DNA of 64,000 bases, taken from NCBI GenBank assembly GCA_965198225.1, contig CBDAOY010000004.1, forward strand, positions 32,001 to 96,000. Direction: 5' to 3'. The notes below the pieces were generated by a model. That model was given only the letters and a program-made list of their open reading frames with translations. It was not told where the DNA came from and ran no database searches. Source of the DNA: Terriglobia bacterium (GTDB taxonomy: Bacteria; Acidobacteriota; Terriglobia; 20CM-2-55-15). Made by a program: the position numbers and the translations under genes. Of this stretch, positions 1-49,004 are shown one piece after another; position 1 is the first letter of the stretch, and every line of letters starts with the position of its first letter.

Positions 1-96
1 AATAAGCAGGTCTGACGACTATGGCAGGGCTGAATTGTCGTCGTATGGGTGTTATGTACACCCGCGCGCGGCCGCAGGCCGTCGCGCGGATTCAGG
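1..96. repeat. Copy 1 of ~70-bp oriIS-like/dif-like repeat (cut by window edge) plus GC hairpin extension
   Basis: AATAAGCAGG-TCTGACGACTATGGCAGGGCTGAATTGTCGTCGTATGGGTGTTATGT matches 1447-1504 and 2585-2642; extension ACACCCGCGCGCGGCCGCAGGCCGTCGCGCGG shared with copy 3 only. Confidence 0.95.
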
Positions 97-257
97 AGCC
101 GGGCCTTGTTCGGACTGCGTTCGATCCCCAATGGATCGGCTACACCTCGGCTCTCGCGGCGCTACCTCGGTGAGCCGGCTCGCCGTCACGTCGTCGTTTG
201 AACCGGCCCGCTCCCGCCTTGTTGCGAACCGAGCACTCGAAGGTGCACAATGCTGGC

Positions 258-1223
258 ATGGAGTCTGTGTTGCGCGAAGTGCTGCGGGATTCGAGAGCGC
301 CCAGGCGTCTACCATTGCTCTTGCTTCCAGTGGTCTTGTTTTACGGCGTTCCGCTAATCCCCTACCCCTACGGGAACGCCATGCTGACGTCCCTGGGCGT
401 GCGGCTCGCTTACCTCATCTTCGTCGCGCTCGTAGCCAGCCTTACCGGGTCCGTTTTGGGTTCGGTGCGGCGGGTGTACACGCGAAGGTTTGGAAACCAG
501 GGGCGAGCGGGGATCCAATGGGGCATGCCGGCCGCGCAGATGGGGACGTTCGCCTTCGCGGCCTTGCTGATCGTCTCTGGTCTCCTCGATCGCAATCCCT
601 ATTTACTCCTCATGCCGGGCCTTACCATCGTTGGCATCCTAGCCGTAGTGGCCGTATTCCTGTTCCGCGAAGAGGTCCGCTCCCTGTTCATCGGCGAAGA
701 GAGCCAGGGTGCAGTGCCATCGGGCGACGGGCGGCTCAGAGAGACTCCCGGCGGCCCGCAGCAGCCGCGCATCGTGGTGAGCTACCGCAGGGAAGACACA
801 GGGCACGTCGCCGGGAGGCTCCACGACCGACTCTCGAGCGAGTTCGGCTCCGAATTCGTATTCATGGACATCGACAACATCGAGCCCGGATCGGATTTCA
901 AGGAGGCGATCGAGTCCGCGGTCGAGGCTGCCGACGTGCTGGTTGCCGTGATCGGCACTCGGTGGCTCAGCCTCACCGATCGAGAAGGGATGCGGCGGCT
1001 CGACGATCCGTCGGACTACGTGCGACTGGAGATCGGCACGGCCTTCGGCCGTGACATCCGGGTCATCCCCGTGCTCACCAATGACGCGGAGATGCCTGCC
1101 GAATCCGAGCTGCCCGACGACCTCCGACCCCTTTCTCGTCGACAAGCCATCGAGGTCGGGCACAAGAGCTTCCATTCCAACGTCGATGACCTGGTGCGTT
1201 CGGTCAGGAACGTCCGCTCCTGA
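258..1223 (+). CDS. Membrane protein (~4 TM) with C-terminal TIR (TIR_2-type) domain
   Basis: Hydrophobic N-half; IVVSYRREDT..AGRLHDRL..VFMDIDNIEPG..DYVRLEI TIR motifs with putative catalytic Glu; ATG258 lies 6 nt after CACAAT (ORF track starts at 198). Confidence 0.85.
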   Translation: MESVLREVLRDSRAPRRLPLLLLPVVLFYGVPLIPYPYGNAMLTSLGVRLAYLIFVALVASLTGSVLGSVRRVYTRRFGNQGRAGIQWGMPAAQMGTFAFAALLIVSGLLDRNPYLLLMPGLTIVGILAVVAVFLFREEVRSLFIGEESQGAVPSGDGRLRETPGGPQQPRIVVSYRREDTGHVAGRLHDRLSSEFGSEFVFMDIDNIEPGSDFKEAIESAVEAADVLVAVIGTRWLSLTDREGMRRLDDPSDYVRLEIGTAFGRDIRVIPVLTNDAEMPAESELPDDLRPLSRRQAIEVGHKSFHSNVDDLVRSVRNVRS

Positions 1224-1434
1224 GACGTTGCGGGTCGCGGGGCGGGCCGCGGCTCCGGCGCGAGCAGAACGGATCGACTGCCACACGATTGGCGACTCGA
1301 CCCCCGTCATCCTCGACGCGATACTCCGTCGAGAGACCCCTGTCCGAGTTTTCCTATCGACTCTTGCGCGCCGACGAGGCGGAAGACCCGGTAGAGTTCA
1401 TCCACTCGATCTACGGGTCCGACTATCCCTCCGA

Positions 1435-1511
1435 GCGGATAAGCGGAATAAGCAGGGTCTGACGACTATGGCAGGGCTGAATTGTCGTCGTATGGGTGTT
1501 ATGTCAACCCG
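1435..1511. repeat. Copy 2 of oriIS-like/dif-like repeat
   Basis: GCGGATAAGCGGAATAAGCAGGGTCTGACGACTATGG...GGGTGTTATGT (1435-1504) has one mismatch to 2573-2642, then diverges after TTATGT. Confidence 0.95.
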
Positions 1512-1618
1512 GCGATCTGGAGTAACCGCAATCCTGCGTGGCTCGGCGCGCGCACCTCGCGCCGTGGTTCCAGACGAAGAAAGCCTCGTGATGGTTCGAG
1601 GTTACTATTGTGGCCGCG

Positions 1619-2530
1619 TCAGGGGTTTGTTGTTGCCGGCGGAGACGGCTGACTGCTACTGGTGTTCATCACGAACCCGGTGGCATTGGCGAGTTGTTCG
1701 AGGGTGAGCACATCGGTGATCCACTGGCCGTCAATGATCCACGTCGGGTAGGTTCTTATGCCAACCGCTGTACATGCGGCAGCCGCGCGAGCGTTTCGGC
1801 CATTGGGACTGCATTCGATGTATGGAAGCCGGCTCGCTGAAGGTCCGAAAAACCTCTTCTGATCCTGGCAGTGTGGGCACCACGACGCTCCATAGAACTT
1901 TACGCCCTTCTCAGTGAGGTGTTCCGCGAGGGCCCGGGCCATCGGGTCCTCCGGTCCGAGAGGCTCCGGCAATGGGGCAGTGTAGTTGAGATGAAGCGCC
2001 ACGATGAAAAGAGCCGCGAGCACCCCCCGGCCACGAACGAGACGCCCCCATGGGCGGTTCACCACCTCCGTCGGCCGCTGGTAAATGACCAGGGCCAGCG
2101 TGGCCGCCATCAGCGTGAGCGACGTCAGGCAATACGGACAGGTCGCCTTGAGGATAAGTAGGGAAACGGCGGTCAAATAAACGCTGTAGCAGAAACCGAA
2201 GAATGCCGCTGAAAACGCGTAGGACCAGTGCTGGTCGACCCGGCGGACAAAGGCGATTCCTCCGATTCCGGTGTATGCCAGCAATCCCCAGAACGCTGTC
2301 GGCAGGCCGAACAGGATTGCCCACCGACTTGTCAATACGACGTCGCATCCGCCGCCTGCGGCACATCCTCTAACCGCCGCACCCGTGAACGAGGTCCATG
2401 CCAGGTAGCTGGTCAATACCATCCCAATTCCGCTCAGCACCAGCAATGGCCAGTTGGGCGTCGTACGCAAGGCAGGCCCGGTCACTGGGCGCGCGTTTGC
2501 CTGCCGCCATCTTTTCGATTTTTTCCCCAT
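1619..2530 (-). CDS. Vitamin K epoxide reductase (VKOR) family protein fused to thioredoxin-like domain
   Basis: C..GGGCDVVLTSRWA, CPYC, then YGASWCPHC and YIEC..C..YPTW; start MGKKSKR at 2530 lies 7 nt after TATCAT. Confidence 0.9.
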   Translation of the reverse strand: MGKKSKRWRQANARPVTGPALRTTPNWPLLVLSGIGMVLTSYLAWTSFTGAAVRGCAAGGGCDVVLTSRWAILFGLPTAFWGLLAYTGIGGIAFVRRVDQHWSYAFSAAFFGFCYSVYLTAVSLLILKATCPYCLTSLTLMAATLALVIYQRPTEVVNRPWGRLVRGRGVLAALFIVALHLNYTAPLPEPLGPEDPMARALAEHLTEKGVKFYGASWCPHCQDQKRFFGPSASRLPYIECSPNGRNARAAAACTAVGIRTYPTWIIDGQWITDVLTLEQLANATGFVMNTSSSQPSPPATTNP

Positions 2531-2572
2531 AAACGGAATGATAACTGAAAAAGCAGTTTCAGTGACGTTGAT

Positions 2573-2684
2573 GCGGATAAGCGGAATAAGCAGGGTCTGA
2601 CGCCTATGGCAGGGCTGAATTGTCGTCGTATGGGTGTTATGTACACCCGCGCGCGGCCGCAGGCCGTCGCGCGGGGGATTCAAG
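2573..2684. repeat. Copy 3 of repeat; probable oriIS end of the adjacent ISCR/IS91-type element
   Basis: Lies ~90-200 bp downstream of the transposase stop (2772, minus strand); minus strand ends ...GCTTATTCCGCTTATCCGC. Confidence 0.85.
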
Positions 2685-2771
2685 GCAGGATGTTCCGGGC
2701 AGGCGGCTGATTCAGGGCAGTTTTTCGTCTTGCGGAGACACACCCATCCCGCGGCGTCGTGACGTCGACGT

Positions 2772-3277
2772 TCAGAAGTCGTCCATCTGGCAGTTGTAGT
2801 CGGAAGAGGCCGGCGCCACAGGCGGGGCGCGGGAAGGCAGGCCCAGGCACTCCAGGATTCTTACTGTGATCGTGGGCGGACGAATTGCTGCAAGGATTTT
2901 CATCCTTCCGCCGCAATGTTCACACTGAAGAACGTCCACCAGGAAGGCACGTTTCATCAACTCCGCCCAGGTGTAAGATTGCGCGCAGATGATTCCGTGC
3001 AGGGCTCAGCCGCAACAGTCAGCTCGGCTGATTGTTGGGCATTAGGCTGCGGTTTCACCTCGGTCTCCCTGCGATTGTCATGGCTGGCTGGAACGATCAG
3101 GGACCTCCACGCCGCAGCAGGGCCAGGTACTCCGTGATACCTCGTCAGGTGAGCGCGCGGCGCCGGGACCAGGGCCGCCAGTTTCGCGATGAAGTCCTGG
3201 CGCTCGAAAACCACAGCGGTGGTTCCGTCACGCCATGGACGTTTCAAACGGTAGTGGAGCCGGCGGGCGACCGGACG
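2772..3277 (-). pseudogene. 3' remnant of IS91-family (ISCR-like, Y2 HUH) transposase, frameshifted
   Basis: YRLKRPWRDGTT..AKLAALVPAPRAHLTRYHGV and WAELMKRAFLVDVLQCEHCGGRMKILAAI..ILECLGLPSRAPP; frameshift near 2975; 5' part missing. Confidence 0.85.
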
Positions 3278-3335
3278 GTCGCGCTCCTGTTGTCTGGCGA
3301 AAAAGTGGTCCTCAGGGTTTGACGGAGGCGGATCG

Positions 3336-4130
3336 CTACGGTTCGCAGGTCGGGGCGAGGGATTCCATCAACGTCAGGCTGATGCGATCCTGATCGGAGT
3401 CGCGCAGCAGCACTCCCTTCGCCATCATCTTGTGACCCCTGTACTCGGAGGGCTCGAAGGCGCCGAGCATCAGGAGGTTCCGCAGCTGGAACGCGCGCGT
3501 TCCCAGCGGCTTCTTCGCGGCGGCCTGCAGTTCTTCGGGAATCGTTGTGTCCAGTGTGCGGGTCCTGGCAGCCTCGGGAGCCATCGTCAGCATCCAGTCG
3601 TCTTCGGACTCCTCGGTCAGGCAACCGATCACCTGCACTGTTGCGCGGTGCGGCAGAGGTTTGGGCCCGTCCTCCCCTTCGATCCGGATGCTTCCAAGAC
3701 TGCCGGCGCCCAATTCGGTTGAGGCGGTCGGGAACCCGTTCGACTGTAACAGGTAGGCAAGTATGTCGACGTACTGTTCGTCGGTGAGAATTCCGGGGTC
3801 GTTTCTCGGCATCAACGTACTCATCAGGGTATAGAGGCTCTGGAGACTGTCCTCCCGCCAGCGTTCCATGAACTGCTCGCCCCGAAGCGGTGGATCAGGC
3901 CGCCCCGCCCGGCCGCCCTCCAGAGAGACCCCGTGGCAGCCTGCGCACCGCGCTCCTTCGTAGAAGGCGCGGCCCCTTGCGGCCTGGCCATCCGTGTACA
4001 CTCCGTTCCAGACGGTCACCTGTTCCGTACCGGGGGGTGTGGTCGCTTGAGCCCCGGCTTTCTCGGTGAGGAGCCCGAGGCCTCCGAGGACGAGGACAGG
4101 AATCAAGCAGGTCGGCAGTCTCTGAAACAT
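3336..4130 (-). CDS. Exported monoheme cytochrome c with C-terminal accessory domain
   Basis: Signal peptide; TVWNGVYTDGQAARG..CAGCHG..MP motif. Confidence 0.85.
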   Translation of the reverse strand: MFQRLPTCLIPVLVLGGLGLLTEKAGAQATTPPGTEQVTVWNGVYTDGQAARGRAFYEGARCAGCHGVSLEGGRAGRPDPPLRGEQFMERWREDSLQSLYTLMSTLMPRNDPGILTDEQYVDILAYLLQSNGFPTASTELGAGSLGSIRIEGEDGPKPLPHRATVQVIGCLTEESEDDWMLTMAPEAARTRTLDTTIPEELQAAAKKPLGTRAFQLRNLLMLGAFEPSEYRGHKMMAKGVLLRDSDQDRISLTLMESLAPTCEP

Positions 4131-4513: not shown

Positions 4514-6928
4514 ATGAAAGTGATCCTGCCGGTGATCGGTGGCTTGATGGGGCTGTCGGCGATGGTCCTGGGCCAGACCGGCCCGATGTCCGCCGAATCG
4601 CAGCGCGCACTCGTGGACCAGTACTGCGCCCACTGCCACAACGATCTGGAGCAATCGGGCGGGTTTTCCTGGACGGCAGTCGACCTGAACCACGTCGAGT
4701 TGAGCGCGGAACAGATGGAAAAGGTCATCCGCAAGGTGCGATCCGGCATGATGCCCCCGGCTGGCGCGGCTCGCCCGGGCGCGGACACCCTGAAGGCGTT
4801 CGCCTCGGCTCTGGAGGAGCGCCTCGACCAGGCTGACGCCGCGGAGCCTTATTTCGACAAGCCGGAATTACATCGGGTCAACCGGACGGAGTACCGCAAT
4901 GCGGTCCGCGATCTACTTGGTGTCGACGTGGATGTTTCCGCGCTTCTACCGCCCGATCCCAGGAGCGCCGGCTTCGACAACATGTCGGACGCACTGACGA
5001 TCACTCCGGCGCTCATGGACGGTTACCTGAACGCCGCCCACAAGATCAGCCGCCTGGCGGTTGGCGACCCGGCGATGTCGCCCTTCGTCGTGTACTACAA
5101 CGTCCCACGCGTCGTGAACCAGATGCGCCACGTCGAAGGGGCGCCCTTTGGAACGCGCGGCGGCATTTCGGTTATCCACAATTTCCCGGCAGACGGCCGG
5201 TACAAATTCACGGTGGAACCTCATTTCAACTACGGCGATCGCACTCGCGGCCTCTTCGGCACTTCGCTTCCGGAGAGGATCAGGGAGCAGCAGATGGAGA
5301 TCTCCGTGGACGGCGAGAGGGTCGCGATATTCGGGGTTGACGAGGACCTGTACGAGGGGCAAGACCCGTCATCGGGTTCTTATGGCAATGTGATCACGGA
5401 TCCGATCGAGGTCAAAGCAGGTCAGCGGAGAGTCTCTGCCGCGTTCATCTCCACTTATGACGGACCGGAGCAGGACCTCTACCGGCTTGCCGAGCAGACA
5501 CTGGCAGATCCCCTCGCGGGCGACAAGCCGGGAATGACCTTCCTGCCTCACCTGCAGACTTTCGCCGTCGCGGGTCCGTTCGATCCAACCGGGGTGTCGG
5601 AGATGGACAGCCGAAACAGGCTCTTCATCTGCCGGCCCGCGAATCCCGACGAGGAGGAAGCCTGCGCCACGGAGATCGTTTCGAGGCTGGCGAGACTGGC
5701 GTTCCGCCGACCCGTGAATGCGGAGGACCTCGAGTGGGCGATGACTTACTACCAGCGGGGGCGGGACTCCGGGGATTTCGACGCCGGGATCCTGACCGCG
5801 CTCCAGGCCATCATGTCGAACCCGGAGTTCGTGTTCCGCTTCGAGAGCGTTCCGACCGGCGCCCGCCCGGATGAGCCCTACCGGATCAGCGACCTGGAGC
5901 TGGCGGCGCGCATGTCGTTCTTCCTCTGGAGCAGCGGCCCAGACGACGAGTTGATCGAGGTTGCGAGCCAGGGGAAGCTCAAGGATCCGGCGGTGCTGGA
6001 ACAGCAGGTCAGGCGGATGCTGGCCGATCCTCGTTCGGAAACGCTCGCGACGAACTTCGCCGCGCAGTGGCTGGGTCTGGGAAACCTGAACGACTTTATT
6101 CCCGAGCCCAAACTGTTCCGCGATTTCACCCGCAACCTGGCGCACTCGATGCGTCGCGAAGTCGAGCTGCTGTTCCAGAGCATCTTAAGGGAAGACCGAA
6201 ACGTCATCGACCTTCTCACCGCGGACTACACGTTTGTCGATGAGATCCTCGCCCGGCACTACGGAATCCCGCGCGTGCTGGGCAGCCGCTTCCAGCGTGT
6301 GGCGCTGACGGACCCTGCAAGGTATGGCCTGCTGGGTAAGGCCGGTATCCTCACGATGACGTCACTGGCGAACAGAACATCTCCCGTCGCCCGCGGCAAG
6401 TACGTCCTGGAGGTTCTTATCGGCTCACCGCCGCCGCCGCCGCTCCCTGCTGTTCCTCCCCTGAAGGAAGCCGCGATCAACGAGAAGGTCCTATCGGTGC
6501 GCGAGCGTATGGAGCAGCACAGAGACAATCCCGCATGCCGTGCCTGTCACCAGATCATGGACCCCATTGGTCTGGCGCTCGAGAATTTTAATGCCGTCGG
6601 GCTGTGGCGCACGAGGGACTTCGGCGCCGAAATCGATCCGTCCGGTACGATGTACGACGGCGCGAAGCTCGACGGTCCCATCAGCGTGCGGCAGGCGGTC
6701 CTCGGCCGATCCGAGGCCTTCATCGGAAACTTCACGGAGAAGCTGCTGGCGTATGGTGTGGGCCGCGTGCTGGACTACCGCGATATGCCCGTGGTGCGAT
6801 CGGTCGTGCGGGAAGCATCGGAGAACAACGATCGATTCTCCTCGTTCGTTCTGGCTATCGTCGGGAGCCGGGCTTTCCAGATGAACAAGACGCCGGAGGG
6901 CACGGATGTGGCTGCCGGCAGGCGGTAA
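4514..6928 (+). CDS. DUF1592/DUF1588 (PSD1-5, PSCyt) diheme cytochrome c-like protein, copy 1
   Basis: CAHCH and CRACH; HRVNRTEYRN, ELAARMSFFLWSS, RTSPVARG; RBS AAGGAG before ATG4514. Confidence 0.88.
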   Translation: MKVILPVIGGLMGLSAMVLGQTGPMSAESQRALVDQYCAHCHNDLEQSGGFSWTAVDLNHVELSAEQMEKVIRKVRSGMMPPAGAARPGADTLKAFASALEERLDQADAAEPYFDKPELHRVNRTEYRNAVRDLLGVDVDVSALLPPDPRSAGFDNMSDALTITPALMDGYLNAAHKISRLAVGDPAMSPFVVYYNVPRVVNQMRHVEGAPFGTRGGISVIHNFPADGRYKFTVEPHFNYGDRTRGLFGTSLPERIREQQMEISVDGERVAIFGVDEDLYEGQDPSSGSYGNVITDPIEVKAGQRRVSAAFISTYDGPEQDLYRLAEQTLADPLAGDKPGMTFLPHLQTFAVAGPFDPTGVSEMDSRNRLFICRPANPDEEEACATEIVSRLARLAFRRPVNAEDLEWAMTYYQRGRDSGDFDAGILTALQAIMSNPEFVFRFESVPTGARPDEPYRISDLELAARMSFFLWSSGPDDELIEVASQGKLKDPAVLEQQVRRMLADPRSETLATNFAAQWLGLGNLNDFIPEPKLFRDFTRNLAHSMRREVELLFQSILREDRNVIDLLTADYTFVDEILARHYGIPRVLGSRFQRVALTDPARYGLLGKAGILTMTSLANRTSPVARGKYVLEVLIGSPPPPPLPAVPPLKEAAINEKVLSVRERMEQHRDNPACRACHQIMDPIGLALENFNAVGLWRTRDFGAEIDPSGTMYDGAKLDGPISVRQAVLGRSEAFIGNFTEKLLAYGVGRVLDYRDMPVVRSVVREASENNDRFSSFVLAIVGSRAFQMNKTPEGTDVAAGRR

Positions 6929-7002
6929 ACGAGTTCTCAAACGGGCTATCAGGGGCGAGTGATTTCGATCCAGCGTTCCCATCATTTCAGGAGGCAATAG
7001 CG

Positions 7003-8373
7003 ATGTTCCTCACGAAAAAGCATATTTCACGGCGCACGGTTCTGCGTGGCATGGGTGCCGCGGTGTCGCTGCCGTTTCTGGAGTCCATGGTTCCGGCGCA
7101 GACACCCCTCCGCAAGACCGCGGCCGCGCCACGAAGCCGCCTGGCCTGCCTGGAAATGGTGCACGGTTCGGCCGGCTCCACCCCTCACGGAACAGACGCC
7201 AACCTCTGGATGCCGGCCGAGGTGGGTCCCGATTTCACATTCTCGCCGATCCTGAAACCGGTGGAGCGGTTTCGGGACTACATCACGGTCGTCACGATGT
7301 GCGACAGCGAACCGGCGGAAGCCAGCACGCCTGAAGAGGTGGGTGCGGACCATTTTCGGTCCAGTGCCGTGTTCCTGACGGCCGCCAAGCCGAAGCGGAC
7401 CGAAGGGTCTGACGTCTATTGCGGTACGTCGATCGACCAGCTCTATGCACAGAGGTTCGGCCAGGACACGCCGCTGCCGTCGACTCAGCTTGGCATCGAG
7501 AACCTGGATGCGTCGGGAACGTGCGCTTTCCGCTACAGTTGCGTCTATTCGGACACGATCGTCTGGTCGTCGCCCTCGACGCCGGTCCCGATGGTGATCG
7601 AGCCGCGCATGGTTTTCGAGCAGCTCTTCGGGCTTGGAGCGAACGAGGCGGAGCGCAAGGCCAACCGGGAGCTTAAAAAGAGCATCCTCGACGGGGTCAC
7701 GCACGTCGTGGCTCGGCTGAAGAAGGATCTGGATGCAGGCGATCGCGGCAGGCTCGACGCGTACTTGGACAACGTTCGCGAGATCGAGCGGCGGATCGAA
7801 GCTATCGAGGCATATAACGCCGGCGGCGGTCGCCGGAAGCTCCCCGAAGCGCCGGTAGGTGTGCCGGACTCCTGGGAAGATCATGTGAAGCTGATGTTCG
7901 ATCTCCAGGTGTTGGCGTTCGCCTCGGAGGTCACACGCGTTTCCGCTTTCAAGATGAGCAAGGACGCGAGCGGCCGTACCTTCCCGGAGAGCGGTAACAC
8001 CATGCCGTTCCACTCGGCGTCCCATCACGCCGAGGCTATACCTGCGATCGAGGCTTTCTCCAAGATCAACCGGTACCACGTGAGCGTGCTGGGGTACTTC
8101 CTGAACAGGTTGAAGAACACGCCCGATGGTGACGGCAATCTTCTGGACCACTCGCTCGTCCTCTATGGCAGCCCGATGGGCAACTCCAACACGCACAACC
8201 ACAAGAGGCAGCCGATGCTGCTGGCGGGCCATGCCGGCGGTCAGGTTAAGGGCAATCTGCATCTTCGCTGCGCGGAGGGAACGCCGGTGGCGAACGTGCT
8301 GCTGACCATGATGCAGAAGCTCGGGGTCGAGATCGAGCAGTTCGGAGACAGCACGGAATCCCTGGCGATCTGA
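7003..8373 (+). CDS. DUF1552 family protein (twin-arginine-like leader), copy 1
   Basis: MFLTKKHISRRTVLRGMGAAVSLPFLESM; H..SHH; DGNLLDHSLVLYGSPMG..H; RBS GGAGG. Confidence 0.88.
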   Translation: MFLTKKHISRRTVLRGMGAAVSLPFLESMVPAQTPLRKTAAAPRSRLACLEMVHGSAGSTPHGTDANLWMPAEVGPDFTFSPILKPVERFRDYITVVTMCDSEPAEASTPEEVGADHFRSSAVFLTAAKPKRTEGSDVYCGTSIDQLYAQRFGQDTPLPSTQLGIENLDASGTCAFRYSCVYSDTIVWSSPSTPVPMVIEPRMVFEQLFGLGANEAERKANRELKKSILDGVTHVVARLKKDLDAGDRGRLDAYLDNVREIERRIEAIEAYNAGGGRRKLPEAPVGVPDSWEDHVKLMFDLQVLAFASEVTRVSAFKMSKDASGRTFPESGNTMPFHSASHHAEAIPAIEAFSKINRYHVSVLGYFLNRLKNTPDGDGNLLDHSLVLYGSPMGNSNTHNHKRQPMLLAGHAGGQVKGNLHLRCAEGTPVANVLLTMMQKLGVEIEQFGDSTESLAI

Positions 8374-8434
8374 CGCCGGGCGGACGCTGTCACTATCTCT
8401 GTTACAGGCTACTAGTTTTGAAGGAGACGGGAAA

Positions 8435-9997
8435 ATGCTGGCGCTAAAACTGGCAACTCTCTTGTTCGTCGCGCCCCTGGCCCCTGCAGCGGGAGATCCG
8501 CCCCTGGCGGATGCGGCCATGCAGGGGGACCGGACCACGGTGCAATCGCTGCTGGCGGGCAACGCGGACGTGAATGCCGCCCAGGGGGACGGGACGACTG
8601 CGCTGCACTGGGCCGCGCACAGGGAAGACCTGGAGATGGCTCGGATGCTCGTTGAGGCCGGTGCAGATCTGAAGGCGAGGACACGGGTGGGCAAATTGAC
8701 GGCTCTTTTCCTGGCGGCCAGGAACGGACACGCCGCGATGCTCGACCTCCTGCTCGAAGCCGGCGACGATGCCAACGCTGCCGGTACGACGGGAACGACG
8801 CCACTCATGCTGGCCGCGGCCTCAGGCCAGGCGGACGCCGTCAAGGTGCTGCTGGACAGGGGGGCGGCGGTCAACGCTACCGACATCGCGAACGGACAGA
8901 CGGCATTGATGTTTGCCTCTGCGAGGAATCGGACCGAAGTGATCGACGTTCTCGCAGCGCACGGGGCGGACCTGAATGCGACCTCGCGGGTCAACCGAAT
9001 TCCCTCGTCGGAGAATCCGAATCGAAACCGTGAGGATGTGGGCACAAATCCCACGATCATGGGCGGCCTGACGGCGTTGCACTTTGCGGCCCGGGAAGGC
9101 CATAAGGAGGCCGTCGAAGCGCTGGTCGAGGCGGGGGCGGATGTCAACCAGGTCAGCGGTTCGGACCGGGTCAGCGCGATGACGCAGGCCATCATCAACG
9201 CCGGCTTCGACATCGGGAAGTTCCTGCTCGATCATGGCGCCGATCCCAACCTGGTCAGCACGCGCGGGCTGAACTCTCTGTACGCGACCATCGACGCGCA
9301 GTGGGCAACGGTTACGTCGTATCCGCCGCCGACTGTGGCGGGCCAGAAGACGAGCCATATGGATCTGCTACGGGCTCTCCTGGACAAAGGCGCCGAACCG
9401 GACGTCCAAATGGGACCCATGCTGTGGTTCAGGCGGTTCACTGCCGGCGACTGGGTGGATGCGGGTGGTGCAACGCCTTTCTGGCGGGCGGCTCAGGCGA
9501 ATGACCTTCCCGCAATGCGGATTCTGGTGGCCGCCGGGGCAGACCCGAACATTCCGACAGAGGGTGGCGTTTCGCCGCTGCAGGTGACCGCGGGCTACGG
9601 CTTCGAACACGACGCCAGCACGGTCGTACCCGACGCGCGGTTCGAATCCGTCCGATACCTCGTGGAAGAGCTTGGCGTCGCCGTGAGGTCGACAGATAGC
9701 GAAGGTTACACGCCGCTTCATGGCGCGGCGGTCGTCGGGGAAAACGAGATCATTCGGTTTCTGGTGGCCAGCGGCGCCGACCCGACGGTCCGAGCTCACT
9801 TGATTCGTGTCGGCGACGACGGACAACGCGAGATTGTCGACGGCGCGGGGGACAGCGTCGCCGATATGGCCAACGGCCCGTTCCAGCGCGCCATAATCTA
9901 TCCCGACACGATCGAGCTCCTCGAAGGCCTGGGTTCGGAGAACTCGCACAATTGCCGATCTGCCGCATGCCTCAACCCGAACCGGCCGGGAGGATAG
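8435..9997 (+). CDS. Exported ankyrin-repeat protein, copy 1
   Basis: Signal peptide; repeated GxTALH/TPL..AA motifs; C-terminal NCRSAAC. Confidence 0.9.
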   Translation: MLALKLATLLFVAPLAPAAGDPPLADAAMQGDRTTVQSLLAGNADVNAAQGDGTTALHWAAHREDLEMARMLVEAGADLKARTRVGKLTALFLAARNGHAAMLDLLLEAGDDANAAGTTGTTPLMLAAASGQADAVKVLLDRGAAVNATDIANGQTALMFASARNRTEVIDVLAAHGADLNATSRVNRIPSSENPNRNREDVGTNPTIMGGLTALHFAAREGHKEAVEALVEAGADVNQVSGSDRVSAMTQAIINAGFDIGKFLLDHGADPNLVSTRGLNSLYATIDAQWATVTSYPPPTVAGQKTSHMDLLRALLDKGAEPDVQMGPMLWFRRFTAGDWVDAGGATPFWRAAQANDLPAMRILVAAGADPNIPTEGGVSPLQVTAGYGFEHDASTVVPDARFESVRYLVEELGVAVRSTDSEGYTPLHGAAVVGENEIIRFLVASGADPTVRAHLIRVGDDGQREIVDGAGDSVADMANGPFQRAIIYPDTIELLEGLGSENSHNCRSAACLNPNRPGG

Positions 9998-32339: not shown

Positions 32340-33013
32340 TCCGGTTCTTCTACGTGAAGGTGCTTCGCCGTCCCTATCACCAGGTCGATCTGGTCTATCC
32401 GAAACAGCCGTCCCGGTTGCCCACGATTCTGAGCGAAGAGGAAGTGGCGCAACTGCTGGCCTCCGCCAACAGTGCCTATCACTTCGTCATCCTGATGACC
32501 TTGTATTCGACGGGACTGCGGCGGGCCGAGCTGTGTCGTCTGAAGGTCGAGGACGTCGATAGCGAACGCATGGTGATCCATGTGAGGCAGGGTAAAGGCA
32601 ATCGCGACCGCGACGTGCCGCTGTCACCGAAACTGCTGGAAGTCCTGCGCGACTACTGGCGTTGGCGGAAACCCGGCGAGTACCTCTTCCCCAGTTTGCT
32701 CCGGACCCGGCCCGGACAGCCCATCGATGTGAAGACGGTTTGGTACGCCGTCCAACAAGCCGCCCAACGTGCCGGCATCAAAAAGAAAGTATCCCCACAT
32801 ACGCTGCGCCACAGCTGGGCCACCCACCTGCTGGAGAGGGGAACCGACCTGCGAACCATCCAGCTCCTGTTGGGTCATGTCGATCTGGAAGCGACGACCC
32901 TCTATCTCCATTTGTCTCAGGCGCACATGCAGCGCGTGGTGAACCCGATCGATTCTCTTCCGGTTCCCGATCTGGGACCGTCTCCCCGTCTGAGAAAGAA
33001 GAAAGGCGAATGA
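32336..33013 (+). pseudogene. Tyrosine recombinase, N-terminally truncated
   Basis: ALRFFYVK.. begins mid-domain; TGLRRAE, GKGNRDR, HTLRHSWATH, LLGH, TTLY. Confidence 0.88.
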
Positions 33014-33043
33014 GCCGGCCCGCCGTCGAGGTGGCCGAGGCGA

Positions 33044-34207
33044 ATGAGCCGGCCCGCCGTCGAGGTCATCGTCCGCGCCCGGGTTCGAGGTTTCCTCCAG
33101 CGTCACCGCCTCGGCATCCAGAAGCTCAAGGTCCTGCGCGCCATCCTGAACTGTCGTACTGCGGCTCTGGGTGGCCACATCGACCGGTGTGCCGATTGTG
33201 GCCGGGAGTCCGGAATCTCGTTCAACTCCTGCCGCAACCGCCACTGCCCGAAGTGTCAGACCCAGGCCCGACGACGGTGGCTCGAAGCACGAGAAGCCGA
33301 ACTGCTGCCCACCCCCTACTTCCACGTCGTGTTCACCGTCCCGCACCAGTTCCATCCGTTCTTCTTCCACAACCCTGCCCTACTCTACAGCCTGCTGTTT
33401 CGCAGCGTGGCCGACACGATGATCGAGGTGGCGGCCAATCCGAAACGACTCGGCGCCCGGATCGGCTTCTTCGGCATCCTGCATACCTGGAGTCAGAACC
33501 TGGAGTTCCATCCCCACATCCACTGCGTGGTACCGGCCGGCGGACTGGCTCCGGATCAGTCCCGTTGGATTCCGGGTTCTGGGCGCTTCTTCCTCCCCAA
33601 GCAGGTGCTCGCCCGAGTCTTCCGTGGCAAGTTCATCGACGGGCTCGGGCGAGCGATCGCCGACGGTTCGCTCGAACTGTCCGGCTCGATTCGACCCTTC
33701 GGCGAACCGCAACACTTTCGGCGGTTCCGCCGCCAGATCCATTCCCGCAACTGGGTCGTCTATATCAAACGACCCTTTGGTGGCCCCGAACAGGTGCTCC
33801 GCTACCTGGGCCGCTACACCCATCGGGTCGCCATCTCCAACCATCGATTGATCTCGTTTGACGGTAACCGGGTCCGGTTCCGTTGGCGGGATTACCGCAA
33901 TGGCAACAAGAGTCGCATCATGACACTCGCGGCCGACGAGTTCATCCGACGGTTCTTATTGCACGTTCTGCCGAAGGGCTTCGTCCGCATCCGACACTTC
34001 GGATTCATGGCCAACTACCGCCGGTCGGCCGCCTTCGCTCTCTGTCGCCAACTCCTCGATGCCATGCCGAGGGTCGAATCTGACGAAACCACCACCTCGA
34101 ACTCTTCCTGGTCGTGTCCGCACTGTCAGGGACCGATGACTCTCATCCAACGCTTCACCGCTCTGCAACTCGTAGCGAGGCTCGCCTTCCAATGCGATAC
34201 GTCCTAA
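33044..34207 (+). CDS. IS91-family rolling-circle transposase
   Basis: CRTAALGGH, NSCRNRHCPKC Zn motif, HPHIH HUH motif, YLGRYTHR Y2 motif. Confidence 0.93.
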   Translation: MSRPAVEVIVRARVRGFLQRHRLGIQKLKVLRAILNCRTAALGGHIDRCADCGRESGISFNSCRNRHCPKCQTQARRRWLEAREAELLPTPYFHVVFTVPHQFHPFFFHNPALLYSLLFRSVADTMIEVAANPKRLGARIGFFGILHTWSQNLEFHPHIHCVVPAGGLAPDQSRWIPGSGRFFLPKQVLARVFRGKFIDGLGRAIADGSLELSGSIRPFGEPQHFRRFRRQIHSRNWVVYIKRPFGGPEQVLRYLGRYTHRVAISNHRLISFDGNRVRFRWRDYRNGNKSRIMTLAADEFIRRFLLHVLPKGFVRIRHFGFMANYRRSAAFALCRQLLDAMPRVESDETTTSNSSWSCPHCQGPMTLIQRFTALQLVARLAFQCDTS

Positions 34208-43589: not shown

Positions 43590-45194
43590 CTACCGCTGGC
43601 CGCCGATGCGGTTCGCGTTGATGCACAGTGAAGCGCGGCAGTTATTGGAGTTTTCCGATCCGAGGTTCTCCAGCAGCTTGATGGTCTCCGGATAGATGAT
43701 GGTCTTCTGGCGGGGACCATTGGCCATGTCGACGACACTCTCGCCTTTACCCTTTTCGACATGTTTGTCCGTCGCACCTTCCGCCAGCACGACGTCCGCG
43801 CGGGCGGTGGAGTCTGCTCCGTAGGCAACGAGATAAAGAATAATGTCGTTGTTGCCGACGACGGCCGTGCCATGCAGCGGTGTGAAGCCCTGGGCGTCGC
43901 GCGAATTCACATCAGCGCCGAGCTCTTCCACAAGATATCGGATGACTTCAAACCGCGCGTCGGGGACGAATTTGCTGCCGCGGTCTTCGATGCCCCAGCC
44001 GGCGGCGACTTGAAGCGCCGTGACGCCTCTTCTCGATGTGATCGATGGATTGGCTCCGGCGGCAACCAGCATCTTCATGGCGACGAGGTCATTCGCCTGG
44101 GCGGCGCGCCAGAATGGCGTCACCTGGTCGGCGTCGGCGTAATCGCCACCGTCCATCGTTCGGAAGAACAACTTCGCTCCCATTCGCACGTTCGGGTCTG
44201 CTCCACGATCGAGCAGCGCTTTCAGAAGATCAAGGTGCTCGGTCTTTTGGCCCGCCGGACTCGGCGGCGGATAGGCGGTTTGCACGGCAAACCGGGCGTC
44301 CAGCACAGCGAACAGCGGGTTCAGCCCGCGTAGGCCGACCAGATTCGGATCCGCACCGTGATCCAGGAGGAATTTTCCGATGTCGAAGTTCGCGTTGATG
44401 ATCGCGATCGTCAGCGCGCTGTCTCCGTCGGATGCCGAAGGCAGATTGACGTTGGCTCCAGCCTCGACAAGGGCGCGCGCCGCATCGAGATGACCCTGGC
44501 GCGCAGCGAAGTGAAGCGCCGTGAAACCGCCCATCTCCGTGGGGTCCGAGCCTAGTCCGCTTCGCAACGCGTTATCACCATCTTTTTTATTTAAAGGGAG
44601 TTTGTTCACCTTCGATGTCGCATCCAGGTCGGCGCCATGCTCGGCCAGCACCCTGATGACGGCAGCCCGATTTTTCGCAGCGGCGAACATCGGCGCGGTC
44701 TGCTCGTTGGCGATATCTTTCGCATTCACGTCCGCGTTGTGATCGAGCAGCGCGTTCACGGCTTCCGGCCGGCCGGAAGCCGCGGCCAGCATCAGAGGCG
44801 TTGTTCCGAGCGAGCTTGCGGTGTTCGGATCCGCACCGGCCTTCAACAGGAGGTCGAGCATCGCCGCGTTGCCGTTCATGGCGGTCATAAACAGCGGCGT
44901 CATTCCATCGATACGGGTTTTCTTTGTCAGGTCGGCACCGGCCTGGAGCAGCATCCGGGCCATCTCCAGATCGTCTCTGTAGACGGCCCAATGCAGCGCC
45001 GTGGTGCCGTCTCCCTGAGCGGCGTTGACTTCGACCTCCTGCTGAAGCAGCAAGCGAACGGTGTCTCTGTCGCCCTTCATCGCCGCCTCCGACACTCGGG
45101 TGTCTTCATTGCCTGCTGCAAACGTCACCTGTCCGCCGGTAGCTGCAAGTAACGTCGCCACCAGAACTGCAAGAACGAATCTCGGGCCCATCAT
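43590..45194 (-). CDS. Exported ankyrin-repeat protein, copy 2
   Basis: Colinear with 8435-9997 (AAQGDGTTALHW, TPFWRAAQANDL, NCRASLC). Confidence 0.9.
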   Translation of the reverse strand: MMGPRFVLAVLVATLLAATGGQVTFAAGNEDTRVSEAAMKGDRDTVRLLLQQEVEVNAAQGDGTTALHWAVYRDDLEMARMLLQAGADLTKKTRIDGMTPLFMTAMNGNAAMLDLLLKAGADPNTASSLGTTPLMLAAASGRPEAVNALLDHNADVNAKDIANEQTAPMFAAAKNRAAVIRVLAEHGADLDATSKVNKLPLNKKDGDNALRSGLGSDPTEMGGFTALHFAARQGHLDAARALVEAGANVNLPSASDGDSALTIAIINANFDIGKFLLDHGADPNLVGLRGLNPLFAVLDARFAVQTAYPPPSPAGQKTEHLDLLKALLDRGADPNVRMGAKLFFRTMDGGDYADADQVTPFWRAAQANDLVAMKMLVAAGANPSITSRRGVTALQVAAGWGIEDRGSKFVPDARFEVIRYLVEELGADVNSRDAQGFTPLHGTAVVGNNDIILYLVAYGADSTARADVVLAEGATDKHVEKGKGESVVDMANGPRQKTIIYPETIKLLENLGSENSNNCRASLCINANRIGGQR

Positions 45195-45213
45195 GACTTG
45201 GCTCCTTTCAAAC

Positions 45214-46584
45214 TCAGAACGCGAGAGGTCCGGTGCTGTCGCCGAATTTCGTGATCTCCACGCCGAGCTTCTGCATCATCGTCAGCAGGATGTTTGCGGC
45301 CGGGGTTCCTTCGCTACAACGAAGATGCAGATTGCCTTTCAACTGGCCGGAAGCATGTCCAGCCAGCAGGAACGGCTCGCGCTTGTGGTTGTGCGTATTC
45401 GAGTTCCCCATCGGACTGCCGTACAACACCATCGTGTGATCCAGCAGATTGCCGTCGCCGTCCGGAGTGTCCTTCAGTTTGTCCAGAAAGTGCCTCAGGA
45501 CGCCGATGTGGTAGGTGTTGATCTTCGCCAGCTCCAGGATGGACTGCACGGTTTCTCCATGATGCGAAGCCGAATGGAACGGAGTGGCGTTGCCGCTCTC
45601 CGGGAATGTGCGATTGCTGGCGTCGCGGCTCATTTTCATGGCCGAGACGCGCGTGACGCCGGCTGAGAACGCGAGCGCCTGCAGGTCGAACATGAGCTTC
45701 ACGTGTTCTTCCCAGGAATCCGGCACGCCAACGGGAGCTGTGGGTATCTCCCTGTCCGGGTTCGACGCGTTGTACGATTCGATCGCCTCGATCCGTCGCT
45801 CGGTCTCGCGGACGTTCTCCAGGTAATCGTCCAACCTGCTCCGGTCCCTGGCATCCAGCTTTACTTTCAGCCCGGCTACAGCGCGGACGATCCCATCGAG
45901 GATGCTGCCCTTGACCCTGCGGCGTGTCGCGCGCTCCTCCTCGGTGCCGCCGACGCCGAATAACTCCTCGAAAACCATACGGGGATCCAGGGTCATCGGC
46001 AGCGGTGTTGTGGGGGAAGACCAGCTGATCGTGTCGGAATACACGCAGCTGTACTTGCGGGCGCAGCTGCCCGTTGCGTCAAAGTTCTCGATCATTAACT
46101 GGATCGAAGGTACGGGCGTGTCCTGGCCGAACGTCTGCGCATATAGCTGATCGATCGATATGCCGCAATAGACGTCGGAGCCTTCGGTCATCTTCGGGTG
46201 AGCGGCGGTCAGGAATACGGCGCTCGATCGGAAGTGGTCGGCGCCGACCTCCTCCGGTATGACGGCATCGGCCGGATCGCTGTCCACCATCGTGACCACT
46301 GTCAAGTAGTCGCGCAGCCCTTCGAGCGGCATCAGAATCGGCGTGAGCTCGAAATCCGATCCCTCTTTGGCCGGCATCCAGAGATGATTCTCGGTCCCGT
46401 AAGGAGTGCTGCCGGCGGAACCGTGAACCATTTCGATGCAGGCAAGCCGGCTGCGCGGAGATGCCGCGGTGTTTTTCAAGGGAGTCTGCGCCGGCGCCAT
46501 CGACTCCAGGAAGGGCAGTGCAACGGCTGCTCCCATACCCCGAAGGACCGTGCGCCGCGACAGATGCTTTTTCGTAATGAACAT
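45214..46584 (-). CDS. DUF1552 family protein, copy 2
   Basis: MFITKKHLSRRTVLRGMG; closely similar to 7003-8373. Confidence 0.9.
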   Translation of the reverse strand: MFITKKHLSRRTVLRGMGAAVALPFLESMAPAQTPLKNTAASPRSRLACIEMVHGSAGSTPYGTENHLWMPAKEGSDFELTPILMPLEGLRDYLTVVTMVDSDPADAVIPEEVGADHFRSSAVFLTAAHPKMTEGSDVYCGISIDQLYAQTFGQDTPVPSIQLMIENFDATGSCARKYSCVYSDTISWSSPTTPLPMTLDPRMVFEELFGVGGTEEERATRRRVKGSILDGIVRAVAGLKVKLDARDRSRLDDYLENVRETERRIEAIESYNASNPDREIPTAPVGVPDSWEEHVKLMFDLQALAFSAGVTRVSAMKMSRDASNRTFPESGNATPFHSASHHGETVQSILELAKINTYHIGVLRHFLDKLKDTPDGDGNLLDHTMVLYGSPMGNSNTHNHKREPFLLAGHASGQLKGNLHLRCSEGTPAANILLTMMQKLGVEITKFGDSTGPLAF

Positions 46585-46616
46585 GATGCTGCCTCCAAAA
46601 TCCTCATACAGGCCAG

Positions 46617-49004
46617 CTATTGAGCGCTGGCGGTATGCACCCTTCTCATCTGAAATGCCGCACTCTCGACGACACCCGAGACGAATGCCGAGAAGCGGTT
46701 CCCGTTTCCTGCCGCTTGTCGCGTGATGGCGCGAACGGCAGGCATATCGCGATAGTCGAGCACCCGGCCTATCCCATAGGCGAGAAGGCTTTCCGCGAAG
46801 CTTCCAAGAAATGCATCGGACCGGTTCAGTACCGCTTCGCGCACACTGTGCGGCCCGTCCAGTTTGCTTCCGTCGTACATCGTGCCTGTCGCGTCGATGG
46901 GCGTACCGTCGTCATCCACACGCCATAGACCGATGCCGTCGAAGTTCTCCAGCGCCAGGCCGATCGGATCCATGATCTGATGACACGCCAGGCAGGCGGC
47001 GTTGTTGCGATGCTGCTCCATACGCTGGCGTACCGACGGATTCGTCTGGTTGAACACCGCCTCTTCTAGTGGAGGAACCACCGGCGGAGGAGGCGGCGGA
47101 GGCGACCCGATCAGAACCTCCAGCACATACTTGCCGCGCACAACCGGCGACGTTCTGTTGGCCAGTGACGTCATCGTCAGGATGCCGGCCTTCCCCAGCA
47201 AACCGAACCGGTTCGGATCCGTCAAGGGCACGCGCTGGAACCGGGTTCCGATCACGGCCGGGATTCCATAGTGCTGGGCGAGAATTTCATCGACGAAGGT
47301 GTAATCCGCCGTCAGCAGATCCAGGACATCGCGGTCCTCGCGCACGATGCTGTCGAAGAATAGTTCGATCTCGTGCCGCATCGACTGCGCCAGATTCCTG
47401 CTGAAGTCACGGAATACTTTGGGTTCTGGAAAGACGTCGTTCAGGCCGCCCAGGCGGAGCCACTGCGTGGCGAAGTTTGTCGCGAGTGCATCCGAGCGAG
47501 AGTCGGCGAGCATCCGCCTCACCTGCTGTTCGAGAACCACCGGATCCCTCAGCTTGCCTTGACTGGCCAGCGCAATCAGTCGCTCGTCGGGCGGACCGCT
47601 CCACAGGAAGTAGCCCAGACGCGTGGCCAACTCGAGATCACTGATGCGATTAGCGCCGCCAGGAGGCACATTCGCCGGCGCCTCCTCGACTCGAAACACG
47701 AATTCCGGATGCGAGAGGATGGCCTGCAGCGCGCGCCGGATGCCGTTATCGAAGTCGCCATCTTTGCGGCCGCTTTCGTAGTAACCCACCGACCACTCGA
47801 GGTCTTCGGCAGATGCGGGTCTGCGAAATGCCTGTCGCGTCAGGTTCGTGATGATTTGTGTGGCGCACGCTGTCTCTTCGCTGCTGTCGGGCGCCCGGCA
47901 GACAAAAATCTTCCGGCGGCTGGCCGTTTCGGAAACTCCGGTAACGTTGAACGGGCCCGCGATCGCGAGACTTTCCAGGTGCGGCAAATGGCTCAAGCCT
48001 GGCTGATTTCCGCCAATGGGATCGGCCAGGGTTTGCTCCGCGGGTTTGAAAAGGTCTTGCAGCGGGCCGTCGTGCTTCGCAAGGAACGCGGCGGCAACCC
48101 TTCGCTGGCCGGCCTTGATTGCGATGGGAGGCGTGAGCAGCGCATCGGCGGGCGATTTCTCGGTTGGCGTTTCATTGAGTTCGGGAAAGAGCGTAAACAG
48201 TGCGACGCGCTCGCCGTCGACGGAAATTTCGATCTGCTGGTCCTTCAATTCCTCCGCCAGCATGGTGCCGAACAGTTGGCCCGTGTATCGGAAATGAGGC
48301 AGCACTCTGAATGTGTATTCGGCGTCGGCCGGGAAGTTGTGCGTCACGCCAATGCCGCCGCGAGTGCCGAACGGCGTGCCCTCAACGTGCCGCGTCTGGT
48401 TCACGACCTTCGGCACCCGGTAATACGAGACCGAAGCGGAAACCTGAGGATCGCCGACAGCCAGGCTGCTGATCTTGCCGGCGGCGCGGAGATAAGCCTC
48501 CATGAGCGCCGGAGTAACGGTCAGCGCGTCGGACATGTTGTCGAAGCCGCCGCTTCTCGGGTCGGGCGGCAACAGCAGCGAAACGTCCACATCGATGCCG
48601 AGAAGCTCTCGCACGGAGTTGCGGTATTCAAGGCGGTTGACGCGGTGCAGCTCAGGCGACTCGATGTGCGGTCGGTTGGCCGCGGCCTGATCGATTCGGC
48701 CTTCAATCGCGGACGCGAACGCTTTAAGCGTTGCGAGCTCGGGACGCGGAGCGCCCGCAGGAGGCATCATGCCGGAGCGTACTTTGCGGATGACACGCTC
48801 GGCCATCTCGGCGTTTTGCTCGATATGGGCGGGGTCGAGCTCTGCCCAGGAAAAACCGCCGGACAGAGTGTCCTCGTTGTGGCATCCGGCACAGTATCGA
48901 TCGATAAGAGCGCGCTGGGATTCCGTCGTCATGCGGTCGCTCTGGCCCAGTGACATCGCGGTCACAAACACCAGACCGGCACCCACCAGCAATATCCTTC
49001 TCAT
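46617..49004 (-). CDS. DUF1592 diheme cytochrome c-like protein, copy 2
   Basis: CAGCH, CLACH; RBS AAGGAG before MRRILL. Confidence 0.88.
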   Translation of the reverse strand: MRRILLVGAGLVFVTAMSLGQSDRMTTESQRALIDRYCAGCHNEDTLSGGFSWAELDPAHIEQNAEMAERVIRKVRSGMMPPAGAPRPELATLKAFASAIEGRIDQAAANRPHIESPELHRVNRLEYRNSVRELLGIDVDVSLLLPPDPRSGGFDNMSDALTVTPALMEAYLRAAGKISSLAVGDPQVSASVSYYRVPKVVNQTRHVEGTPFGTRGGIGVTHNFPADAEYTFRVLPHFRYTGQLFGTMLAEELKDQQIEISVDGERVALFTLFPELNETPTEKSPADALLTPPIAIKAGQRRVAAAFLAKHDGPLQDLFKPAEQTLADPIGGNQPGLSHLPHLESLAIAGPFNVTGVSETASRRKIFVCRAPDSSEETACATQIITNLTRQAFRRPASAEDLEWSVGYYESGRKDGDFDNGIRRALQAILSHPEFVFRVEEAPANVPPGGANRISDLELATRLGYFLWSGPPDERLIALASQGKLRDPVVLEQQVRRMLADSRSDALATNFATQWLRLGGLNDVFPEPKVFRDFSRNLAQSMRHEIELFFDSIVREDRDVLDLLTADYTFVDEILAQHYGIPAVIGTRFQRVPLTDPNRFGLLGKAGILTMTSLANRTSPVVRGKYVLEVLIGSPPPPPPPVVPPLEEAVFNQTNPSVRQRMEQHRNNAACLACHQIMDPIGLALENFDGIGLWRVDDDGTPIDATGTMYDGSKLDGPHSVREAVLNRSDAFLGSFAESLLAYGIGRVLDYRDMPAVRAITRQAAGNGNRFSAFVSGVVESAAFQMRRVHTASAQ

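Follow-up and report, generated by a model that had tools for sequence, protein, structure and literature searches.

Organization of the locus

We analyzed a 64,000-nucleotide stretch of the genome of a Terriglobia bacterium (the window, G000:C4:32001-96000, where G000 denotes the genome under study and the other G and L labels denote relatives' genomes and fetched loci). At its left end, three direct copies of a repeat (-11..90, 1435-1511 and 2573-2675) enclose a membrane-TIR gene and a gene for a VKOR protein with a thioredoxin-like domain, and the third copy adjoins the remnant of an ISCR-type transposase. The ISCR-type element itself is known, and IS801 miniatures and the ISCR28 sandwich are precedents; what is new here is a fixed module from the origin (ori) end of such an element, stacked in long one-sided arrays.

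The first-pass annotation described a ~70-bp repeat in three direct copies with at most 2 differences. The three direct copies stand, and the repeat is longer (77-103 nt). Copy 1, which begins 12 nt to the left of the window at G000:C4:31989 and has its right end at window 90, differs from copy 3 at 2 positions in 102 nt (E 6e-44), and copy 2 differs from copy 3 at 3 positions in 77 nt (E 8e-30). The sharp left edge noted earlier for copies 2 and 3 is also found on copy 1; this outer edge, GCGGATAAG, is common to all three window copies and to 10 of the 11 ori ends that a profile search finds in G000, the 11th having the edge GCGCATAAG. Each pair of copies encloses one gene, and the two genes run in opposite directions, as first described; Pfam identifies TIR_2 (E 4.5e-13) on the + strand and VKOR (E 1.1e-19) on the - strand, the latter with an additional weak glutaredoxin-like match (E 0.003). 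The TIR protein also gives a weak ThsB-like PADLOC match (E 4e-6), and 42 nt separate the VKOR start codon from the outer edge of module 3. The reading of the neighboring remnant as an IS91/ISCR transposase is borne out by its Y2_Tnp tail (PF04986, E 2.4e-5), the stop of which (2772) lies 200 nt from the outer edge of copy 3. The sequence of copy 3 runs on into this remnant as far as 3300, where the element is cut off without a termination (ter) end. One statement of the first-pass annotation is not supported: a scan finds no sigma-70-type site in window 1-3400 (0.7 expected), where each cargo gene had been credited with its own promoter-like box. The annotation also proposed a look for more units to the left, and the profile search finds no further copy of the module upstream on contig C4.

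The assembly was checked against contigs of four public runs (X1, X2, X4 and X6; three samples from three studies, one of them possibly the source sample). The overlaps between module and cargo on both sides of each cargo block show 0 differences in contigs of X1, X2 and X4, and X6 covers them partly; no contig of the four runs spans the whole three-copy array. Flank and cargo depth are alike in X1 and X2, as judged from contigs only. A lower depth of the TIR unit in X4 and X6 was not reproduced in X1 or X2 and was dropped as evidence. The features of the locus are given in Table 1; the 211-nt tail of unit 1 has no convincing homologue in the genome or the fetched loci.

Table 1. Positions of the ori modules, their cargo and the transposase remnant in the window
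Feature	Position	Strand	Description
Ori module 1	1..90 (102 nt including 12 nt left of the window)	+	Modal type; inner end at foot of GC hairpin 61-90; dif-like site 35-62
Cargo 1, membrane-TIR gene	258..1223	+	321 aa from ATG at 258; hydrophobic N-terminal half, then TIR_2 domain
Tail of unit 1	1224..1434 (211 nt)		Truncated by outer edge of module 2
Ori module 2	1435..1511 (77 nt)	+	Stops where hairpin begins; dif-like site 1482-1509 (score 9.8)
Cargo 2, VKOR with thioredoxin-like domain	1619..2530	-	303 aa; CPYC and CPHC motifs; module-free homologues in G002 and G003
Ori module 3	2573..2675	+	Still joined to parent; dif-like site 2620-2647 (score 4.6); GC hairpin ~2645-2675
ISCR-type transposase, 3' part	2772..3264	-	Frameshifted; 96% identical to broken copy at G000:C6:545076-545712
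32-nt piece, 5' part of same transposase	3269..3300	-	Internal deletion at 3264/3269

The repeat and its parent element

We compared the 3' flanks of homologous transposases. In six transposase frames of at least 500 aa (in G002, G003 and G021; nine loci examined), the repeat sits 173-201 nt past the stop, in line with the initial placement of oriIS about 200 bp downstream. An intact transposase of a relative matches PF04986 (E 4.5e-27) and PF14319 (E 6.6e-18), and HFH and RYxxR are visible in it; identity is 42% to ISVsa3 and 40% to ISCR1, the closest transposases come from Terriglobia records, and the NCBIfam model for ISCR clade Ia (NF052416) scores 411.7 bits, below its curated cut-off of 925. 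As judged from sequence, the position past long transposase stops and the IS91 protein domains identify the repeat as the oriIS end of an ISCR-type (IS91 family) element.

The ori end contains two hairpins (88% of cells paired), for which covariation is no higher than in shuffles, and an Rfam search returned no match on the module. In five of six full copies the common sequence stops ~2.07 kb from ori, at a putative ter end; a ter end at AACGCC was dropped because conservation extends ~15 nt beyond it. Across 101 independent outer flanks, ori is not preceded by a target motif; the best dinucleotide, GG, occurs 15 times against 7.8 expected (p 0.011, uncorrected), so that these elements lack the tetranucleotide target beside oriIS by which IS91 is strictly defined. 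All copies of this transposase family found in G000 are broken, and a transposase acting in trans is needed for that reason.

The repeat also occurs elsewhere beside variable neighbors, as had been predicted. The module is found in 12 of 23 genomes of the same family and in 0 of 16 genomes of other families of the class, and G000 holds a second module-genes-module locus (C7:902342-904518) with DUF899 and TauD genes. Directly upstream of module 1, at G000:C4:31903-31988, a tRNA-Leu fragment is followed by an ori end, 46 nt long, that belongs to a second ISCR family and directly abuts module 1, all in the same direction; modules of the present family abut sequence of this second family in G003 and G015 as well.

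A module with a fixed inner end

Solo copies of the repeat form a defined module. Among 151 copies from 13 genomes (a catalogue that includes orthologous pairs and one duplicate), the inner end is measurable in 148, and in 83 of these it falls at the 3' foot of the GC hairpin (nt 102-103). When shared right flanks are merged, 60 of 113 inner ends lie at 101-104. At 65 of 69 independent junctions, a purine (G or A) follows the final GCG. Remnants beyond the modal length measure 111-1650 nt.

Clean empty sites were found for none of 81 copies at the protein level and for none at the DNA level, both within a limited search space; the searches returned two near-joins, both secondary deletions, and a five-genome search with a G021 array likewise yielded no empty site. 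In a separate observation, a Ser/Thr kinase paralogue is cut by modules at the same nucleotide in two genera (G000:C7:217896 and L051:4424 of G005) with different DNA on the inner side.

Placement of copies around ISCR elements

For placement, 78 loci were fetched by transposase alone; 68 with a matched C-terminus were tabulated, of which 55 extend far enough downstream. An element's own end recurs in direct copies 29 times outside ori and 0 times on the ter side (292 versus 414 kb), and inverted copies number 4 and 2, respectively. Of the 29, one is a split copy and three are truncated where the locus or contig ends. Where at least 2 kb of downstream sequence is available, outer copies are present in 20 of 35 loci and in 16 of 24 genomes, with records from Myxococcota, delta-proteobacteria and other Acidobacteriota represented. 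For many of these copies, identity to the adjoining parent is 97-100%, and several in other elements, including those of Myxococcota, have a similar boundary, T/A-rich and then CGC. One locus qualifies the polarity: L174 contains a transposase fragment that lacks an ori of its own, and two co-oriented modules lie on the ter side of this fragment.

The junctions were then read through their genes. The scan covered 62 junction reading frames at 17 fresh copies, and genes are often cut mid-domain. A cut gene resumes across the fresh copy in 0 of 6 informative cases, and the outer flank or the near flank resumes on the ter side in 0 of 1 and 0 of 3, respectively. Since cut genes never resume across the copy or on the ter side, each junction joins DNA of different places, and this non-contiguity makes solo insertion less plausible as the end state that is seen. 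The freshest example is L206:11432-20146, where an ISCR element is followed by three 100%-identical ori modules of 239-241 nt within 9 kb; two genes, for a peptidase M20 and a phosphotransferase, are cut at these modules.

Large arrays

The longest arrays contain 28 modules, all on the + strand, over ~110 kb in G006 and 22 modules, all on the - strand, over ~88 kb in G016. The two are orthologous, ~95% identical and mostly collinear. Comparison of their units shows that arrays gain and lose whole units: unit B17 fits exactly between two junctions that adjoin each other in G006, unit A22 is missing from G016, a difference accompanied by a 388-nt duplication, and unit B11 is extra, accompanied by a 154-nt loss. 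Left and right flanks of modules reassort between genomes. The G006 units measure 0.5-15 kb, are often multi-gene and carry genes in both orientations; in this array and its surroundings, 46 of the 96 open reading frames (ORFs) scanned (113 called) have Pfam matches, to mutually unrelated hydrolases, regulators, transporters, Fic and RtcB proteins, and none of the 96 is a tyrosine recombinase. Module identity drops with distance in both arrays (rho -0.2; p 0.004 and 0.013).

Two candidate explanations were rejected. Unit B14 as a donor or empty allele carries 22 extra nt and ~10 nt of microhomology and represents a microhomology deletion, and an orientation of modules set by the replichore is at odds with both orientations at the same skew sign on C7. 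A pattern scan of metagenomes returned 10 short loci, with at least two co-oriented copies in three of them plus a duplicate pair. Elsewhere, multi-kilobase rearrangements between G002 and G003, which are 97-98% identical (L144, L145 and L037), break at ori modules, and a group II intron domain match lies at L040:5299-5520 beside a mini-array of G003.

Origin of the cargo

Homologues of the VKOR gene in G002 and G003 share 87% DNA identity with it and have no module within a 20-kb stretch, and core genes next to these homologues match G000 at ~75%. Similarity extends past the gene by ~25-30 nt on the upstream side and by 35 nt on the downstream side. The higher identity of module-free homologues relative to their neighbors supports a probable capture of VKOR. 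A DNA search of 33 same-family genomes yields no match to the TIR gene, whose best TIR-domain relatives are ~50-60% identical. G022, considered as an array-free orthologous locus, was uninformative because the flanks lie on different contigs and no module is present.

A dif-like site within the module

Nucleotides 49-76 of the module form an in-register 11-6-11 look-alike of the XerCD recombination site dif. The host dif candidate, G000:C8:984363-984386, lies near the cumulative GC-skew peak, with one conserved site per genome across the family, and the host genome codes for XerD and an XerC-like protein. The 9-nt right arm of the module site equals the family dif arm in 21 of 32 g1 copies and 20 of 30 g3 copies, and in window module 2 it equals the host dif arm. 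With a profile built from 18 chromosomal Terriglobia sites and one (the first) locus scored per genome, the dif-like site exceeds the 95% null in 31 of 44 genomes and the 99% null in 29 of 44; its strand is the same in 30 of 31, and it lies 29-83 nt from the ori end. The profile did not detect the site in ISCR1, ISCR2 and two other plasmid IS91-family elements, a negative that is weakened by its training on Terriglobia dif sites.

Other results speak against a role of the site. In g4, the genus with the largest arrays, 1 of 50 copies passes the threshold, and modules 1 and 3 of the window score only 4.6. There is no drop in linkage across the 6-bp spacer, no significant link between the site and a nearby copy (17/27 versus 3/8, p 0.25), and no module part beside chromosomal dif in 25 loci, except at one locus, itself a module, and for one weak self-match of dif. 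On the other strand the right arm is a TTGACA hexamer and could be a promoter box (8/12); the best outward promoter match of the module is 8/12 in this family and 3-9/12 in others. At G000:C6:545713-547039, a candidate IS4-like transposase element, identified by its appearance, interrupts one ori end within its dif-like site and is accompanied by a short duplication.

Proposed mechanism

With the identity of the module, its fixed inner end, its one-sided, co-oriented placement and the change of arrays by whole units established, we propose, with a probability of roughly 0.6, that the ori module of a rolling-circle element builds arrays through an HUH cut at the hairpin foot and joining to the outer flank. 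To begin with, the ori edge of the element, or of an ori-ended block, would be joined to target DNA. The HUH transposase would then nick ori, displace ~102 nt and cut at the hairpin foot, which would act as a built-in second cut, and the 3' end at the hairpin foot would be joined to a nick 0.5-15 kb out in the outer flank, so that the block becomes interior to a new ori copy. The [module + block] unit could subsequently move as a circle that recombines into another module, or within a composite starting at the outermost ori, by means of the transposase, RecA or XerCD. Repeated rounds, together with recombination between modules, would yield arrays. The TIR and VKOR units of the window would be two captured blocks outside a dead parent, with the transposase supplied in trans or before its decay. 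Such a mechanism would account for the fixed boundary, the polarity, the shared orientation, the near-identity to the parent and the non-contiguous flanks.

The head-to-tail cassettes of ori and cargo mobilized in trans that the first-pass annotation envisaged thus survive in part: arrays do change by whole units, and the broken family copies call for a transposase in trans, whereas the single-gene rule gives way to units of 0.5-15 kb with several genes or cut genes. One-ended transposition, also put forward there, reads through ter in its classical form and alone does not explain copies outside ori.

Several observations weigh against the proposed mechanism. The sequences to the left and right of the window array are ~1 Mb apart in G003 and therefore provide no simple before-and-after pair; neither an array-empty allele of the window locus nor a donor state (the block in its native place beside ori, together with the captured form) was found. 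Neither the TIR nor the VKOR unit shows a depth excess and no circle was seen, in data that consist of contigs only and in which the joints listed fall inside repeats. At non-modal ends, which are noisy, a CG|R rule is weak (18/53 versus a null of ~16%) and was rejected as a universal cut rule, and the 2-7 nt of microhomology at the three inner junctions for which a module-free partner can be seen could stem from illegitimate deletion no less than from enzymatic joining. Given their collinearity, the arrays of G006 and G016 are largely inherited, and in G016 the similarity of adjacent copies is not significant (p 0.31).

Alternative explanations

A variant of the third step, included in the probability given above, assigns the movement of units to the host: XerCD would recombine the dif-like sites of two modules, inserting or excising [module + block] circles, and HUH capture would be combined with shuffling by a tyrosine recombinase. 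The single conserved dif candidate per genome, the in-module site that matches its arm, the XerD and XerC-like proteins of the host and the 29 of 44 genomes above the 99% null speak for it, as does the apparent lack of the site in ISCR1 and ISCR2, and it would explain why copies lie on the ori side only. Given the 1 of 50 in g4, the scores of 4.6 in window modules 1 and 3, the lack of a spacer linkage drop, the failure of the site to predict a nearby copy, the absence of a module at chromosomal dif, the possible promoter box and the profile training that weakens the plasmid negative, we regard this variant as tentative. The fixed inner end would also follow if the 102-nt ends transposed alone after premature termination, landed independently and later served as points of recombination or deletion, with the genes between them as passive neighbors. 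Such miniatures have been shown experimentally for IS801 in the work described in PMC3189936, many copies here are scattered singly and in both orientations, and the G002/G003 rearrangements break at modules. Independent landing predicts neither the 29:0 polarity nor 28 co-oriented copies, and it is not favored by the lack of clean empty sites (0 for 81 copies and 0 in the DNA-level test, in a limited search space) or of split genes that resume across a fresh copy (0/6, with limited power); we consider it rather unlikely.

Full-length ISCR elements repeatedly inserted in an island and trimmed by random or hairpin-stimulated deletion would leave the remnants of 111-1650 nt, the microhomology at some junctions and the broken transposases of G000. 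Random trimming gives neither 83 of 148 ends within 2 nt nor a purine as the next base in 65 of 69 junctions, and it does not yield copies that, next to intact parents in distant phyla, are 100% identical and share the boundary, so that this account is improbable and largely refuted by the boundary peak. Local duplication or misassembly would fit the lack of a contig across all three copies; it is highly improbable, as the cargo junctions recur in independent runs, the copies differ mutually, G000 contains 11 copies and 12 of 23 same-family genomes carry the module. The repeat is thus found at the 3' end of homologous transposases, beyond any single local duplication, and with variable cargo elsewhere. 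The kinship to integrons suggested by the first-pass annotation does not hold. A true integron array with attC sites could draw on the array layout and on an integron-integrase match elsewhere in G000 (C6:488798-489706, the sole TIGR02249 match over cut-off, with one TGA inside and unlinked to the window array). There is, however, no attC layout and no linked integrase: the repeat belongs to the end of an insertion sequence, its boundaries are a GCGG edge and the hairpin foot, not a GTT core, a different contig carries the integrase, the cargo lies in both orientations with genes cut, and the G006 ORFs scanned (96 of 113) include no tyrosine recombinase. The nearest tyrosine recombinases on C4 are part of another IS91-type element. 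The position of ori past transposase stops and the inner-end data refute the integron reading, to which we give virtually no weight.

Relation to known systems

As described in the passages of PMC13181058 on IS91, transposition starts at oriIS and cuts beside a palindrome at ter, the transposase works in trans on an 82-bp ori end, single-stranded circles insert, and the target beside oriIS is a tetranucleotide, CTTG/GTTC. Like ISCR1 and ISCR2/ISVsa3, the present elements have an HUH transposase with Zn_Tnp_IS91 and Y2_Tnp domains, an ori with two palindromes ~200 nt past the stop, and foreign genes at the ori end; unlike ISCR1 and ISCR2, they have an ori module reiterated with a fixed inner end, no class 1 integron and a dif-like site, which the profile did not detect in ISCR1 and ISCR2. 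For IS801, experimental right-end pieces of 229, 360 and 679 nt are reported in the relevant part of PMC3189936. These miniatures resemble the present modules as ori-only pieces with fixed inner ends, which in IS801 come from premature termination; according to the passages that describe them, they insert alone and end at a target-like tetranucleotide without a palindrome, with no arrays reported there, whereas the modules described here end at a hairpin foot, lack a target motif before ori (101 flanks) and have non-contiguous flanks. The two-oriIS 'sandwich' by which ISCR28 captured armA (Yuan et al. 2024, as summarised in PMC12772301) likewise encloses a gene between the ori of the element and another, equally oriented ori remnant; by that summary it concerns single loci, unlike the fixed-length module, which is repeated up to 28 times and occurs in 16 of the 24 genomes that were sampled through their transposase alone. 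In the passages available from this and further prior work (PMC6354349, PMC13023784, PMC5737581 and PMC13393415), gene pick-up at the ISCR ori end is explained by multi-step models for single loci only. A search by title or abstract start, with most subscription journals outside its coverage, returned no paper on arrays of ori ends or a dif/Xer link.

Long co-oriented arrays, accessory DNA bounded by repeats, and gain and loss of units are shared with integrons and super-integrons; attC, attI and a linked IntI are not, and here units are multi-gene or begin mid-gene, with genes in both orientations and a repeat that derives from a transposon end. In the pdif modules of Acinetobacter plasmids and in Xer-exploiting mobile elements, dif-like sites bound mobile gene modules. 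The site described here differs from pdif modules in lying inside a rolling-circle ori end, with all copies direct and cargo junctions at least 26 nt outside the site, and its use by Xer is a prediction.

Other features of the window

A different IS91-family element with its own tyrosine recombinase occurs at window 32429-34024 and at G000:C4:27259-28826, and the profile score is the same at nine loci. Window 4724-9795 and 43798-48794 hold inverted paralogous gene clusters that are ~72% alike and end with an ankyrin-like gene; their first gene has dozens of paralogues in congeners. Tandem repeats of 108 nt and 102 nt lie at 61763-62983.

Implications

How ISCR elements pick up genes on their ori side, which is not mobilized by rolling-circle read-through, is a question for which the data point to a testable answer, namely a conserved internal cut beside ori combined with strictly one-sided duplication of the module, and the data make available intact transposases such as that at L040:11952-13448, fresh 100%-identical substrates and natural arrays. 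The arrays constitute large depots of accessory genes that are not expected in the output of integron searches. More speculatively, a widespread ISCR-like clade of Acidobacteriota, Myxococcota and other environmental lineages may be an analogue of integrons that uses a different chemistry: a cut by the HUH enzyme at a built-in site next to ori would convert the flank into circles of [ori module + cargo], and XerCD, through the dif-like site, would stack and shuffle these into arrays of more than 100 kb, a record of one capture after another. A functional dif-like site would tie rolling-circle transposition to host Xer recombination.

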